This document shows positions 61,498-64,000 of a stretch of 64,000 nt of DNA, in pieces. The notes beneath the pieces are model-generated. The model was given only the letters and a program-made list of their open reading frames with translations, was not told the DNA's origin and did no database searches. Where the stretch lies: positions 9,284-73,283 of the forward strand of contig CAYNDV010000004.1 of the NCBI GenBank assembly GCA_964396055.1, read 5' to 3'. Origin of the DNA: an uncultured Vicinamibacterales bacterium. GTDB taxonomy: Bacteria; Acidobacteriota; Vicinamibacteria; Vicinamibacterales; JAKQTR01. A program made the translations under genes and the position numbers. Each line of letters begins with the position of its first letter. Position 1 is the stretch's first letter.

Positions 61498-61591
61498 GCA
61501 GCCGGATGCGCATCCATTCACCTGCGCGCCCACAGGATCCCGGGCGCCGGCACCTGCAGTCACTCAACAGGATGTTGGGGAGGGCGGAATC

Positions 61592-61867
61592 GTGCTCGTC
61601 GTGACACGCAAACGGAACGAGGCCATCATCATCGGCGACGGGATCGAGGTGCGCGTGCTGCGCGTCGGGCGCGACGGCGTGCGCCTGGGCGTCACCGCGC
61701 CGCCCAGCGTGCCCGTGCATCGGACGGAGATCTACCGGCTCATCTGCGACGAGAACCGCGCGGCCGCCGGCGGGTCCCACGTGCCCGGGGACCTGGCGGC
61801 CCGTATCCGCCGCCAGAGCGCGCCGGACCCGGCGCCCGCCGCACCGGTCGAACCGTCAGCACCATGA
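61592..61867 (+). CDS. csrA: Carbon storage/translational regulator CsrA with an extended P/A-rich C-terminus
   Basis: MLVVTRKRNEAIIIGDGIEVRVLRVGRDGVRLGVTAPPSVPVHRTEIY. GTG start with a GGGGAGGG SD. 91 aa. Confidence 0.92.
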   Translation: MLVVTRKRNEAIIIGDGIEVRVLRVGRDGVRLGVTAPPSVPVHRTEIYRLICDENRAAAGGSHVPGDLAARIRRQSAPDPAPAAPVEPSAP

Positions 61868-62829
61868 CCTTCGAAGACTGGCGCGACGCCGACGACCGCA
61901 CCGTGGCGGCGCTGTTCGAGGCCGAGCAGGCGCGTTGGCTGGACACGCTCGGCTGGGACACGCGCGCGTCGTGGGCCATCGTGGACGAGGGGCGGCGCCA
62001 CGGGCACGTGCCCGGCTGGATCCTCCGCGAACGGTCGGGCGCGGTGGCCGGCTGGACCTACTACCTGCTCCACGACGGCGACCTGCAGATCGGGGGCCTG
62101 ACGGCGCCGCGCGCCACCGACCTCCGCCGCCTGCTCGATCGCGTGCTCGACGCGCCAGAAGCCACGCTGGCCTCGTCGGTGAGCGCCTTCGTGTTTCCCG
62201 CGCCGCCGTCCCTGGTGAGCGCCCTGACCCGCCGCCGGTTTGCCGTCCGCCGGTCGTTGTACCTCGCCCGTCCGATCGAGGCGGGGGCCCCCACGCCGGA
62301 GGGGAGCGGCCTCCGTCTCCGGCCCTTCGTGGAACGTGATCTCTTTCCCGCGGTGCGCCTGCTGGCGGCGGCCTACGCCGGCGTGGCCGGCGCCGAGTGT
62401 TTCGCGCCGCACGGCCGCCCCGACGAGTGGGCCCGCTACCTGCGTCAGCTCATCGACACGCCGGCGTGCGGGCGGTGGCTCCCCGAGGCGAGTTTCGTCG
62501 TGGCGGACGAGCGGCTGGAGCATCTCCGGGGACTCGTGCTCACCACGGCGGTCTCGGCAACAACCGCCCACGTGGCGCAGCTCGTCGTCGCGCGCGAGGC
62601 CCGCGGGCAGGGGATCGCCGACGCGCTCATCGCACGGGCCTGCGCGTCGGCCGCCGGATCCGGTCACGCGGCCATGACCCTGATGGTCGACGAAGGCAAC
62701 GCCGCCGCCCGGCGCCTCTACGCCCGCCAGCAGTTCGTCGAAACCTCCGCGTTCGTGACCGCGCGCCGCCGGGGCCAGGTCCGCCTGCCGGTGGGGCGTG
62801 GGGCATGGGGCGTGGGGCGTGGGGCGTAG
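61864..62829 (+). CDS. Two-domain GNAT-family N-acetyltransferase, translationally coupled to csrA
   Basis: There is an ATGA overlap with the csrA stop. The C-terminal GNAT motif A region is VAQLVVAREARGQGIADALIARACASAA...MVDEGNAAARRLYARQQF. The last ~13 codons (VGRGAWGVGRGA*) are encoded by the GTGGGGC heptamer array. Confidence 0.7.
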   Translation: MTFEDWRDADDRTVAALFEAEQARWLDTLGWDTRASWAIVDEGRRHGHVPGWILRERSGAVAGWTYYLLHDGDLQIGGLTAPRATDLRRLLDRVLDAPEATLASSVSAFVFPAPPSLVSALTRRRFAVRRSLYLARPIEAGAPTPEGSGLRLRPFVERDLFPAVRLLAAAYAGVAGAECFAPHGRPDEWARYLRQLIDTPACGRWLPEASFVVADERLEHLRGLVLTTAVSATTAHVAQLVVAREARGQGIADALIARACASAAGSGHAAMTLMVDEGNAAARRLYARQQFVETSAFVTARRRGQVRLPVGRGAWGVGRGA

Positions 62830-62839
62830 GGCGTAGGGC
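62791..62839. repeat. Tandem heptamer array (GTGGGGC-like x7), a canonical G-quadruplex-forming motif
   Basis: GTGGGGC GTGGGGC ATGGGGC GTGGGGC GTGGGGC GTAGGGC GTAGGGC. This gives five GGGG runs and two GGG runs separated by 3-nt loops. The array contains the GNAT stop codon (TAG, 62827-62829). Confidence 0.9.
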
Positions 62840-62846
62840 TCGTCAG

Positions 62847-62897
62847 AAGCAAGAAGCAAGAAGCAAGAAGCAAGAAGCAAGAAGCAAGAAGCAAGAA
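62847..62897. repeat. Tandem heptamer array (AAGCAAG x7 plus a partial unit), the left arm of a long inverted repeat
   Basis: Seven exact copies of AAGCAAG were counted by position at 62847-62895. The array is preceded by CGTCAG. Confidence 0.92.
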
Positions 62898-62943
62898 TGG
62901 ATCACGCTGTCACGCTGTACTGCGTGTACCGTGTCCCTTCTGG

Positions 62944-63025
62944 ATTCTTGCTTCTTGCTTCTTGCTTCTTGCCTCTGACGAACCCCAAACTCCACGCCCT
63001 GAGCCCCTAGCCCCTCCGGTCAACC
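62944..63025. repeat. Right arm of the inverted repeat: (CTTCTTG-type) x4, then CCTCTGACG, then degenerate C-rich heptamers
   Basis: ATTCTTG CTTCTTG CTTCTTG CTTCTTG CCTCTGACG is the reverse complement of CGTCAGAGG(CAAGAAG)n. GCCCTGA GCCCCTA GCCCCTC follows and mirrors the G-rich array. The stop (TAG on the minus strand, 63007-63009) of the convergent gene lies inside it. Confidence 0.85.
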
Positions 63026-63480
63026 AGCCCCGCGCCCATCAGCGGCGGCGCGACGACGCGCCGGTACGCCGCCAGCGTGGAGCCGGCCGCGCCGACCGTC
63101 TGGGCCGCGAGGCGCCGTGCCATCTCGGCGTCCTGGAGCGCGCGGACGGTATCTTCATCGGAATGGATGATGGTCGCCACCAACTCGGCGGCGACGCGGT
63201 GCAGGGCCGCGATCTCCGCGAAGCCGTCCAGCGTGGCGGCGTCCTCGCGGTGGTTCGCCAGCGCCTCACGGGCCGGCCGCAGCTCGTGCTCGACCTTGAC
63301 GAGCGCGGCCATGACGCGGTCCCGTTCCTGGGCGATGACGCCGAGCTGGCGGGCGTCCTGCTGGGCGGTGGCGTCGCGCTGGGCCAGGGCGAGGCGTTTC
63401 AGCGTGTGGAGCAGCGCGACCTCGGCGTCGAGCCCGGGCCCGTAGATGGCCAGCCACTGCCGCAGGTCGTCGCGGGTCAT
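63007..63480 (-). CDS. Helical hypothetical protein downstream of fliS (FliT/FlgN-like by position only)
   Basis: Track ORF 63007..63825 trimmed to MTRDDLRQWLAIYGPGLDAEVALLHTLKRLALAQRD. The ATG at 63480 forms an ATGA overlap with the fliS stop. 157 aa, with helical, coiled-coil-like composition. Confidence 0.45.
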   Translation of the reverse strand: MTRDDLRQWLAIYGPGLDAEVALLHTLKRLALAQRDATAQQDARQLGVIAQERDRVMAALVKVEHELRPAREALANHREDAATLDGFAEIAALHRVAAELVATIIHSDEDTVRALQDAEMARRLAAQTVGAAGSTLAAYRRVVAPPLMGAGLVDRRG

Positions 63481-63878
63481 GGGGCGCCGACGGCGCCGGG
63501 CTTGCCGGCCGCAATCTGCTGCCAGCCGTCCCGCAGCGTGGTGAGGAGGCGCTGGGCCTCGTCCAGGACGGCCGGATCCCGCGAGGCGTTGAAGGCGACG
63601 ATGCGGCCGGTGACGTAGGTGTACAGCTGGTCGAGTTGCGTGGCGATCTCGCCGCCGGCCTTCAGATCGAGGGCGCTCTGGAGTTCGGAGACAATGGCGA
63701 GCGCCTTGGACACCGCGTCGCGTTTGGCGCGCAGGTCGCCCGTCCGGAGGCCTTCGCGGGCCCGCACGAGATTGGTGATGGCTCCGTCGTAGAGCTTGAC
63801 CACGAGTTCCAGCGGCGTGCCGCACTGCACCTGTGTCTGCTGGTAGGCTGCGGCGCCCCGCACCGGCGCGTACATCAT
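63477..63878 (-). CDS. fliS: Flagellin-specific chaperone FliS
   Basis: AYQQTQVQCGTPLELVVKLYDGAITNLVRAREGLRTGDLRAKRDAVSKALAIVSELQSALDLKAGGEIATQLDQLYTYVTGRIV shows the FliS four-helix pattern. Confidence 0.9.
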   Translation of the reverse strand: MMYAPVRGAAAYQQTQVQCGTPLELVVKLYDGAITNLVRAREGLRTGDLRAKRDAVSKALAIVSELQSALDLKAGGEIATQLDQLYTYVTGRIVAFNASRDPAVLDEAQRLLTTLRDGWQQIAAGKPGAVGAP

Positions 63879-63900
63879 CGGCTCTCCTCGCGATTCCGGA

Positions 63901-64000
63901 TCAGAACAGGCTGTACTGGTTGCCGAGCGACGACAGGGATCCGGCCTGGCTGTTGAGCTGCCCGATCAGCATGTCCGCCGCGATGTACTCCTTCTGCAGG
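63901..64000 (-). CDS. fliD: Filament cap protein FliD, C-terminal end only (the gene starts beyond the window)
   Basis: Own translation of the minus strand gives ...LQKEYIAADMLIGQLNSQAGSLSSLGNQYSLF*, which resembles the conserved FliD C-terminus (…F.AMD.L…LNSQ.S.L). It lies upstream of fliS. Confidence 0.6.
   Translation of the reverse strand, partial: LQKEYIAADMLIGQLNSQAGSLSSLGNQYSLF

Follow-up and report, generated by a model that had tools for sequence, protein, structure and literature searches.

In a Vicinamibacterales-like acidobacterium, the junction between a GNAT acetyltransferase gene and a convergent 157-aa gene, both bordering flagellar units, contains a composite palindrome made of heptanucleotide arrays. 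This palindrome is probably a lineage-specific copy of a dispersed, mosaic heptanucleotide SSR family that is common in Vicinamibacterales-like Acidobacteriota; it was gained at this junction and would have a generic, dispensable effect. Heptanucleotide SSR arrays are already known from bacteria, and the family falls within this class: the 7-nt units are repeated head to tail in tandem, they extend further than chance allows, and the element is non-coding, lying between two stop codons and overlapping only the final 12 codons of GNAT. Most likely, the element is a dispensable, REP-like 3′-end hairpin, and neither a flagellum-specific regulator nor a phase-variation switch. Below, we describe its anatomy, the state of the same junction in related genomes, the family to which it belongs, and the known repeat systems that it resembles.

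Anatomy of the composite palindrome

The original prediction, a composite palindrome of ~235 bp, was confirmed in the raw sequence, by Tandem Repeats Finder and by folding within the 64-kb window (the whole stretch of DNA analyzed here; Table 1). From left to right, the palindrome consists of (GTGGGGC)x7, TCGTCAG, (AAGCAAG)x7, a 51-nt centre, (CTTGCTT)x3-5, CTGACGA and a C-rich arm. Tandem Repeats Finder delimits GTGGGGC x7.0 at 62791-62839 (92% matches), AGAAGCA x7.6 at 62845-62897 (100% matches), TCACGCTG x2.1 at 62902-62918, CTTCTTG x5.7 at 62937-62976 (87% matches) and a degenerate C-rich stretch at 62997-63015. A search for AAGCAAGAAGCAAG with at most 2 mismatches gives 10 matches, where 0.03 would be expected by chance.

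Table 1. Features of the GNAT/157-aa gene junction, with positions in the 64-kb window
Feature	Position	Strand	Description
GNAT acetyltransferase gene	61864..62829	+	ORF; last gene of the flgK-flgL-fliW-csrA-GNAT unit
Left junction CTGCCG	62785..62790	none	Final bases common to the element-free relative (L116 alignment)
Whole composite palindrome	62788..63019	none	Long imperfect hairpin on either strand
(GTGGGGC)x7 array	62791..62839	+	G4 motif on the GNAT sense strand; holds the GNAT stop
TCGTCAG linker	62840..62846	+	Left copy of the inverted junction GGGYTCGTCAGARGCAAG
Seven exact AAGCAAG units	62847..62895	+	Left arm of the inner stem; purine-rich, sense for GNAT
Palindrome centre	62896..62946	none	Direct repeat TCACGCTG x2 (62902-62918), small inner hairpin, motif CCCTTCTGGATTCTTG
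Right arm, AAGCAAG units	62947..62974	-	Three exact units and one with one mismatch; degenerate unit at 62940-62946
CTGACGA	62975..62981	+	Right copy of the inverted junction, complement of TCGTCAG
C-rich outer arm ACCCCAAACTCCACGCCCTGAGCCCCTAGCCCC	62982..63015	none	Pairs with the G-rich array; includes the shared CTAG
157-aa gene, convergent	63007..63480	-	Downstream of fliS; C-terminus LMGAGLVDRRG*

The inverted arms are 91-97% complementary over 33-43 nt, and a longer pair of 78 nt is 82% complementary. When folded as RNA, the region forms one hairpin per strand (-155.7 and -157.1 kcal/mol, z = -12), and its DNA fold gives z = -13.7. Both arms are purine-rich on the sense strand of the adjoining gene, the right arm being so for the minus-strand 157-aa gene. 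Some details of the predicted layout had to be adjusted. The left array indeed holds seven exact AAGCAAG units, whereas the right one, counted before as four units, consists of three exact and two degenerate ones. Similarly, the five GGGG and two GGG tracts of the G-rich array stand, with loops of 3-4 nt; the uniform 3-nt loops do not, as the final two are 4 nt long.

Both stop codons lie inside the outer arms as predicted (GNAT TAG at 62827-62829; minus-strand stop, read as CTA, at 63007-63009), and the final 12 GNAT codons (VGRGAWGVGRGA) together with the stop are embedded in the G-rich array. Each convergent mRNA would consequently run from a G-rich array through a purine-rich array into a long stem, which agrees with the earlier description. 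Based on the sequence alone, both G4 potential and an RNA 3′-end hairpin are plausible, and folding predicts a hairpin with the C-rich arm that competes with the candidate G4. A search of Rfam 15 at a permissive E-value returned no match at gathering score; the sub-threshold matches were only to plant and animal microRNA models and psbA hairpin models, and we dismissed these look-alikes as generic matches expected of any long stem.

The junction in related genomes

In the closest relative (L116), the GNAT protein is 82% identical and the synteny is the same, but the convergent genes overlap at CTAG without any spacer, and the element therefore represents a gain of ~190-197 bp in the lineage studied here. 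At the left junction, the aligned L116 sequence reads ATGCCG, followed directly by AACC, while the same alignment places the right limit of the insert at ~62980-62987. The gain swapped 5 non-conserved terminal GNAT codons for 12 array-encoded ones and left the end of the opposing gene intact, with the LMGAGLVDRRG* C-terminus and stop as in L116. Most of the C-rich outer arm is what remains of the former GNAT 3′ end (in L116: AACCTCACGCCCCTCTAG), to which ~12 bases have been added. The three GCCCYnn heptamers once read as a separate array are thus mostly ancestral gene-end sequence that is present in the element-free L116. For annotation, the region is repeat DNA, and the last 12 residues of GNAT are an array-encoded insertion artefact and not a functional tail.

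More distant relatives differ in what they carry at this position. L147 and L148 have ordinary spacers of 58 nt and 43 nt, respectively, without the element, while L117 and L122 carry different heptamer arrays. The latter are not exceptional in their folding (z of -1.4 to +0.8 against shuffled sequence). We therefore rejected a conserved hairpin at the junction: as the L117 and L122 arrays fold no better than shuffles, the hairpin is not what the arrays at this position have in common. Judged by these sequence comparisons, the element is a recent gain in one lineage, and not a conserved part of the flagellar junction. A special, locus-specific function, as proposed originally, finds no support here, with the element absent from L116 and two more relatives and other arrays in the remaining two.

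These comparisons also bear on the possibility that the long stem is a selected bidirectional terminator, insulator or mRNA-stabilizing hairpin, retained for terminating or protecting the two convergent flagellar transcripts and for keeping transcription from colliding. An exceptionally stable hairpin follows directly after both stops, heptamer arrays recur at the junction in L117 and L122, and purine-rich arrays prefer the sense strand right after stops (see below); these points favour such a role, but we doubt it. Neither arm is followed by a T/U tract, and a canonical Rho-independent terminator, in which such a tract follows a short GC-rich stem-loop, is thereby not what the sequence offers; a scan of positions 61500-64000 found no terminator-like site or relevant promoter. 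The element is missing from the nearest relative L116 and from L147 and L148, the arrays in L117 and L122 lack exceptional folding, and the further convergent gene pairs in the window abut with spacers of just -9 to 25 nt. Moreover, when a stem is perfect over 30-40 bp, cleavage by RNase III is a likelier outcome than protection of the RNA end.

The contig appears to be of metagenomic origin, and short-read assembly can go astray at perfect 53-nt arrays and 33-nt inverted arms, for which reason the copy numbers may be wrong. That the composite as a whole is an assembly artefact of a low-complexity or inverted-repeat region is nevertheless extremely unlikely: both flanks continue in the synteny of all relatives, the remnant of the former GNAT end sits exactly where it is expected, and numerous assemblies made independently contain similar composites, some of them on contigs of 1.3-2.0 Mb.

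A probable dispersed family of mosaic arrays

Other acidobacterial assemblies contain related mosaics at loci unrelated to this one, where they have CGTCAGAAGCAAG, TGGATTCTTGC and CTTCTGAC-type motifs in common, as well as CGTCAGAAGCA and CCCTTCTGG. The GGGYTCGTCAGARGCAAG junction is also found at the unrelated loci L013, L125 and L128, and the CCCTTCTGGATTCTTG motif of the centre is common to other family members. L013, L026 and L105 additionally carry a 14-20 nt palindrome, CTTCTGAC-AATC-GTCAG(AAG), which the element in the window lacks. Mosaics elsewhere differ in length and in the order of their modules and are without fixed termini; because they cannot be aligned end to end, it is only through these short motifs that whole elements would be linked by common descent. 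A generic repeat family had been named beforehand as an outcome that would speak against a special function. Related copies at unrelated Acidobacteriota loci were indeed found, although they are mosaic and not identical as had been envisaged.

Period 7 accounts for 376 of the ~600 tandem arrays in the fetched loci, which had been chosen for carrying an AAGCAAG array, and L071, L105 and L096, likewise chosen for one array, hold several independent period-7 arrays per 8 kb. These abundance figures come from loci of other assemblies, among them related MAGs. The 64-kb window itself contains a single period-7 composite: repeat and motif searches of the window revealed no second one, nor a further copy of CTTCTGAC-N4-GTCAG or of the junction motif.

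How would such an element arise? We envisage an illegitimate or microhomology-guided insertion or an inverted duplication of a module composed of the G-rich array, TCGTCAG and the AAGCAAG array. Later replication slippage would have altered the unit numbers, leading to 7 units in one arm and 3-5 in the other, and the element may persist because a 3′/3′ junction tolerates insertion. Each convergent transcript would gain a 3′ region that is rich in purines and prone to G4 formation. If transcription reads through, a very long stem could form that impedes both the read-through and 3′ exonucleases, or that attracts RNase III.

Alternatively, the element might be a MITE-like non-autonomous transposon that was moved by a transposase and inserted with a 6-bp target duplication, which we consider unlikely. 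MITEs are small non-coding elements with inverted repeats, and like them, the palindrome has inverted symmetry at its termini and is present as a filled site in one genome with a clean empty site in a relative (L116). In addition, the junction GGCTCGTCAGAA.CAAGAAGCAAG is found again at unrelated loci, and CTGCCG at the left flank is identical in 5/6 bases to CTGACG, with which the insert ends on the right, a match that could reflect microhomology, target duplication or coincidence. CTGACG, however, forms an inverted repeat with CGTCAG inside the element and is also seen in other copies, so that it is not clearly target-derived. No transposase could be linked to the element from the loci analyzed. 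Unlike MITEs, the family lacks fixed termini, a clear target-site duplication and uniform copies: those elsewhere vary widely in length and module order, the window holds no second one, and uniformity was found neither there nor in the other assemblies.

As units of 7 nt do not preserve the reading frame, the GNAT stop lies within an array and the copy numbers of the arms are unequal, slippage might switch the C-terminus of GNAT or how the flanking genes are expressed, and the locus had been suggested to be hypervariable or a contingency locus. We regard phase variation as very unlikely. Simulated changes of +/-1 and +/-2 units give GNAT lengths of 321, 328 or 366-373 aa and alter only residues past ~308, beyond the end of the Pfam domain at ~295 (Acetyltransf_1/7/10 matches span residues 206-295). 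They thus reach only the post-domain tail; among GNAT homologues, ...RRRGQVR is common to all and the tails that follow it vary. A Pfam search of the minus-strand 157-aa protein gave no match. Furthermore, the arrays are situated at 3′ ends, and neither in a promoter nor in a 5′ coding region. Across several metagenomes, related arrays are identical in 2-5 independent samples each, without copy-number change, and one low-GC pair (L124 and L137) has kept its array spacing without a 7-nt indel over 939 aligned nt with 88% identity. For the locus in the window, exact-protein look-ups with GNAT, FlgL, P0001 and the 157-aa protein yielded no further sample, and the one with FliS led to two short contigs that end ahead of the element. 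Rehm et al. likewise concluded against phase variation for their heptamers (PMC4692102).

Relation to known repeat systems

The closest architectural counterparts are the G4-forming heptamers that Rehm et al. (2015) described in Xanthomonas (GGGAATC) and Nostoc (GGGGA(C/T)T), which lie within 50 bp of stop codons on the sense strand and form either single arrays or inverted pairs, the latter with the potential to fold into stem-loops (PMC4692102). No function was assigned to these repeats, they were not tied to surface or virulence genes, and their length and sequence vary among related species (PMC4692102). Like them, the array described here consists of more than three consecutive 7-nt units that each contain a single tract of three or more G, and its G-rich sense strand is at or overlaps the stop; on the minus strand, the G-rich tract begins at the stop of the 157-aa gene. 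The unit differs (GTGGGGC, not GGGNATC or GGGGA(C/T)T), as does the phylum, while the architecture is alike. Unlike in the Rehm repeats, the G-rich array is nested outside an unrelated AAGCAAG array, resulting in a two-tier palindrome. Their position is mostly conserved between Xcc and Xac (PMC4692102), whereas the palindrome is missing from the closest relative L116.

Heptanucleotides are the most abundant class of long SSRs in many bacteria, according to the summary of Mrazek (2007) in PMC4679880. The tandem 7-nt units, intergenic location and proposed origin by slippage given there are found here as well, while the arrays in that summary are simple and those described here are mosaics with common linker motifs and inverted symmetry. 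Acidobacteriota are not among the taxa named in the summary (PMC4679880). Other heptamers have been found in specific groups: MacGregor (2015) described TAACTGA direct repeats in Beggiatoaceae, Cyanobacteria and Bacteroidetes, mainly just upstream of start codons and with a proposed role in translation control (PMC4679880), and Geobacter metallireducens has heptanucleotide elements with the units MTYCTGA x5 and GGACCGG x4 (PMC2700814). As in these cases, the arrays reported here are intergenic, with one heptamer spread across distant phyla and no evident transfer mechanism, and the CTTCTGA(C) unit of the family fits the Geobacter consensus MTYCTGA. In contrast to the TAACTGA arrays before starts, AAGCAAG-type arrays are found just after stop codons. 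The cyanobacterial STRR heptamer repeats, reportedly described by Mazel et al. in 1990, also consist of tandem 7-nt units. A literature search for AAGCAAG arrays retrieved only two unrelated Bacillus/Pseudomonas papers in which the string happens to be present.

With respect to its probable effect, the element can be compared with the REP/BIME sequences of enterobacteria, which are dispersed, mosaic, palindromic extragenic elements found after 3′ ends or between convergent genes. Individually, these are dispensable, and they can stabilize the upstream mRNA or terminate weakly. The palindrome shares with them its dispersed, mosaic, palindromic and extragenic nature and its position at convergent gene 3′ ends. 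A REP is a single imperfect palindrome of ~35 bp linked to RAYT transposases, in contrast to the tandem heptamer arrays found here, and there is no sequence similarity.

For the TAACTGA repeats, MacGregor proposed S1, Csp or CsrA-type binders (PMC4679880), and the present arrays may similarly be recognition sites for a nucleic-acid-binding protein, such as a nucleoid protein, a G4 binder or CsrA. They are regular and strand-biased relative to transcription, the same heptamer (AAGCAAG) recurs across phyla, and the centre of the palindrome contains GGA motifs (AUGGAU and CUGGAU) with csrA encoded just upstream. Even so, such a platform seems quite improbable, as close relatives with the same csrA operon lack the element, GGA triplets are expected by chance, and the unit sequences at the same junction differ between lineages.

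Strand bias at gene 3′ ends

A genome-collection scan found (AAGCAAG)n arrays in many phyla, including matches to the unit in Microcoleus, Okeania and Oscillatoria. Among arrays of at least three AAGCAAG units with a stop codon as the nearest gene boundary, 37 have the purine-rich strand as the sense strand and 4 as the antisense strand (p = 1e-7); within this subset, the high-GC loci are divided 8 to 0. Other heptamer units show a weaker sense bias (33 vs 15). Arrays inside predicted genes make up 8/52 in high-GC and 97/400 in low-GC fetched loci; genes were called there with a GC3-based caller with 5′ trimming that misses some genes, so that intergenic-type counts are approximate. At the convergent junction, the strand asymmetry switches mid-spacer in three independent lineages.

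Together, the strand bias and the constant spacing in L124 and L137 suggest selection or a directed mechanism acting on such arrays, and describing them as merely tolerated may therefore understate their function. A far-reaching reading would be that purine-rich heptamer arrays (AAGCAAG, GGGGCNN and relatives) constitute a widespread, transcription-oriented 3′-end module across phyla; we think this distinctly unlikely. Such a module may, for example, be a U-tract-independent R-loop or G4 pause or termination signal, or a binding platform in the 3′-UTR. If so, the palindrome would be two modules placed face to face at a convergent junction, and the 37:4 sense bias after stops would be a sign of function rather than tolerance, as would the spacing constancy of L124 and L137 and the strand switch in the middle of the spacer.

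Compared with previous work, this analysis adds a further phylum rich in heptanucleotide arrays, a clean filled versus empty site, and a strong rule across phyla, by which (AAGCAAG)n arrays right behind a stop codon have their purine-rich sequence in the sense strand. This sense-strand rule is worth testing if it reflects a 3′-end mechanism in bacteria without canonical terminators. A G-rich sense strand near a stop codon is also seen in L117, L122 and L071.

Anatomy of the palindrome

The heptamer-repeat palindrome between the convergent GNAT acetyltransferase and 157-aa genes is genuine and striking. Its layout was read from the raw sequence (62400-63400) together with Tandem Repeats Finder (see table), and the anatomy given in the original prediction was correct, including the position of both stop codons inside the outer arms (GNAT, 62827-62829; minus-strand gene, 63007-63009). 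Two details needed adjustment. A complementary array is present on the right, but with three exact and two degenerate units instead of four, and the right arm is indeed C-rich, but much of what had been read there as a heptamer array is ancestral, as judged from alignment with the closest relative. The pattern lies far above chance (10 matches versus 0.03 expected), and the inverted arms (33-43 nt) are 91-97% complementary. Either RNA strand is predicted to fold into one hairpin of about -156 kcal/mol (z = -12), and the DNA fold of the palindrome has a z of -13.7. The composite is unique within the 64-kb window. No T-tract was read beside it, the terminator scan gave no terminator-like site there, and an Rfam search of the palindrome returned zero families at threshold.

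Features of the window palindrome and of related acidobacterial mosaics
Feature	Position	Source
(GTGGGGC)x7	62791-62839	Tandem Repeats Finder + sequence
TCGTCAG	62840-62846	sequence
AAGCAAG, seven exact units	62847-62895	Tandem Repeats Finder + sequence
Centre, 51 nt, with TCACGCTG x2	repeat at 62902-62918	Tandem Repeats Finder + sequence
CTTGCTT-type complementary units, three exact and two degenerate	62940-62974	Tandem Repeats Finder + sequence
CTGACGA	62975-62981	sequence
C-rich stretch	ends ~63015	sequence
Mosaics with CTTCTGAC-AATC-GTCAG(AAG)	L105 870-1050 and 2240-2385; L026 885-1080; L013 5725-5845	

A recent gain at the 3′/3′ junction

The closest relative, L116 (GNAT 82% identical), has the same order, FliW-CsrA-GNAT facing 157-aa-FliS-FliD, without any spacer. 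Its convergent genes overlap by 4 nt on a common CTAG (L116 2004-2007), their opposite-strand stops overlapping, and this CTAG is retained in the window at 63007-63010. Aligning the two places a gain of ~190-197 bp between ...CTGCCG and AACYCCACGCC... in the window. Past the right edge of the insert, AACCCCAAACTCCACGCCCTGAGCCCCTAG preserves the old GNAT end (AAC CTC ACG CCC CTC TAG in L116), which makes the C-rich array on that side in good part ancestral. The final five codons of GNAT (NLTPL in L116) were swapped for 12 array-encoded codons, and the C-terminus of the 157-aa protein (LMGAGLVDRRG*) is the same in both. These comparisons show that the palindrome, a mosaic heptanucleotide-repeat element, is specific to this lineage and was gained recently, and that its arrival altered only a non-conserved protein tail, that of GNAT.

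Other relatives have ordinary spacers without arrays (L147, 69%, 58 nt; L148, 63%, 43 nt) or carry different heptamer arrays at this junction (L117, 66%; L122, 63%), with AAGAAGC-like and AGTAGTC units continuing with CCCTTGC or CGAGCCC units and folding no better than shuffles (z -1.4 to +0.8). The long hairpin is therefore not conserved at the junction, leaving the proposed locus-specific special function without support; the element is dispensable here. Heptamer arrays do recur, with the purine/G-rich strand as the sense strand of the gene they follow. Four other convergent pairs in the window have very compact junctions (spacers of -9 to 25 nt), so this genome generally needs no structured spacer there.

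Homology between the arms extends beyond the arrays (GGGCTCGTCAGAAGCAAG versus the complement of CTTGCCTCTGACGAACCCC), which suggests that a [G-rich]-TCGTCAG-[AAGCAAG] module was duplicated in inverted orientation or inserted; we infer that slippage later altered the number of units. On the left flank, CTGCCG matches the right-end CTGACG at five of six bases, a likeness that could reflect microhomology, target duplication or coincidence. The ancestral flank in L116 contains ACGCCCC, to which the G-rich unit is complementary when read as GGGGCGT, so the array may have been seeded by an inverted copy of local sequence. As a consequence of the gain, both transcripts would acquire purine-rich, predicted G-quadruplex-prone 3′ regions, and read-through transcripts a very long stem, a putative generic REP-like 3′-end effect that relatives can do without.

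Copy-number stability

The palindrome had also been proposed as a contingency locus, which was not borne out. When one or two GTGGGGC units were added or removed in simulation, only residues after ~308 changed (tails of 321, 328 or 366-373 aa), beyond the GNAT Pfam domain, which ends near residue 295, which makes a switch unlikely. Nor are related arrays visibly unstable: they are identical across 2-5 independent assemblies, and two low-GC loci (L124 and L137) keep their copy numbers despite 88% identity over 939 aligned nt, arrays included (gaps of 4 and 1 nt). Another pair, 90.5% identical, does contain indels of 7, 10 and 24 nt. By eye, in 350-nt excerpts (L124 3372-3721 and L137 607-956), a ~150-nt AAGCAAG palindromic mosaic is nearly identical in the two, which suggests constraint on the element or recent exchange.

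A dispersed family of heptamer mosaics

Scanning a genome collection with (AAGCAAG)x3 gave at least 113 loci, and the matches listed span many phyla (e.g. Acidobacteriota, Streptomyces, Cyanobacteria, Bacteroidota and Chloroflexota). Similar intergenic mosaics occur in six high-GC acidobacterial loci (L003, L013, L026, L071, L105 and L110), palindromic in L013, L026 and L105 (two copies within 8 kb). In metagenomes, a search for this palindromic layout returned 23 loci, among them further high-GC contigs (L125, L128, L131, L134 and L140) and low-GC contigs that probably belong to Bacteroidota. Apart from the pure arrays, the window element has short motifs in common with several of these: CGTCAGAAGCA with L125 and L128, GGCTCGTCAGAA.CAAGAAGCAAG with L013, TGGATTCTTGC with L131 and L140, and CCCTTCTGG with L026, L105, L125 and L128. 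AAGCAAG arrays are repeatedly adjoined by G/C-rich heptamer arrays (e.g. CCCGAGC), and in the fetched loci as a whole, most of which were chosen for carrying an array, 376 of ~600 tandem arrays have a 7-nt period.

A small palindromic module, CTTCTGAC-AATC-GTCAG(AAG), also occurs once or twice in acidobacterial mosaics, accompanied by GGGCYCAC-type spacers. In L105 the two copies are separated by 1.3 kb and have runs of ~30 nt in common. The module is a possible REP-like core for the family, and the half-sites TCGTCAG and CTGACGA are its sole trace in the window copy. A second palindromic mosaic type, built solely of G-rich (TTGGGGA, TTAGGGG) and C-rich (GAGCCCC, TGCCCCT) heptamers, lies between convergent genes of a Vicinamibacterales metagenome-assembled genome (L071 1790-1890); it is similar to the outer tier of the window palindrome.

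The window element belongs to an already known kind of heptamer repeat. In many bacteria, heptanucleotides are reported to outnumber all other classes of long simple-sequence repeats, polymerase slippage being the proposed cause (Mrazek 2007, as summarised in PMC4679880). Rehm et al. described G-quadruplex-forming heptamers in Xanthomonas and Nostoc that are mostly non-coding, on the sense strand within 50 bp of a stop, single or in inverted pairs, and variable between related species; phase variation was considered unlikely and no function is assigned (PMC4692102). This description fits the window element closely, although unit sequence, phylum and two-tier nesting differ. MacGregor reported a single heptamer common to distant phyla (PMC4679880), and Geobacter metallireducens carries MTYCTGA x5 elements (PMC2700814), whose consensus is matched by the CTTCTGA unit of the window element's family. 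In an incomplete coverage of the literature, we found no paper on acidobacterial AAGCAAG arrays or heptamer mosaics.

Strand bias after stop codons

The most interesting by-product is a sense-strand rule for purine-rich heptamer arrays after stops. The sample comprised the genome-scan loci (L003-L115), from a scan that did not select orientation, with genes called by a simple custom caller (GC3 for high-GC loci, ORF length for low-GC loci). Among the matches listed, the gene boundary nearest to arrays of at least three AAGCAAG units was a stop in 41 cases and a start in 19; by stops, across many phyla, AAGCAAG lay on the sense strand 37 times versus 4 (p = 1e-7; 8 versus 0 in high-GC loci), and other units leaned the same way more weakly (33 versus 15), counts that are only loosely readable because the caller misses genes and arrays within one composite are non-independent. 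Both arms of the window palindrome follow the rule, one per convergent gene. Degenerate units often bridge out of the stop codon itself (e.g. ...TAGAAGCAAG). In four low-GC loci (L014, L066, L129 and L051), an AAGCAAG array directly follows an apparent intrinsic terminator (stem, TTTTTT, AG-AAGCAAG...); it would then lie beyond the transcript end, which argues against a purely RNA-level role.

Flagellar gene neighbourhood

By Pfam, the plus strand of this ~72% GC region encodes FlgK, FlgL, FliW, CsrA and the GNAT acetyltransferase, facing the 157-aa gene, without a Pfam match, and then FliS on the minus strand. Gene-caller gaps of 600-2200 nt in the window are probably missed genes, not true intergenic DNA. 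At 61592-62829, the acetyltransferase gene (~320 aa) lies directly 3′ of csrA with a 4-nt start/stop overlap, an arrangement within the FlgK-FlgL-FliW-CsrA unit that is kept in all five relatives examined (L116, L117, L122, L147 and L148); its possible partnership with the FliW-CsrA module may merit attention. CsrA itself has 91 aa in the window, its Pfam domain covering only residues 1-50. The 157-aa ORF (63007-63480, minus strand) likewise keeps its position and length in all relatives and, judged by position, may encode a FliT-like chaperone.
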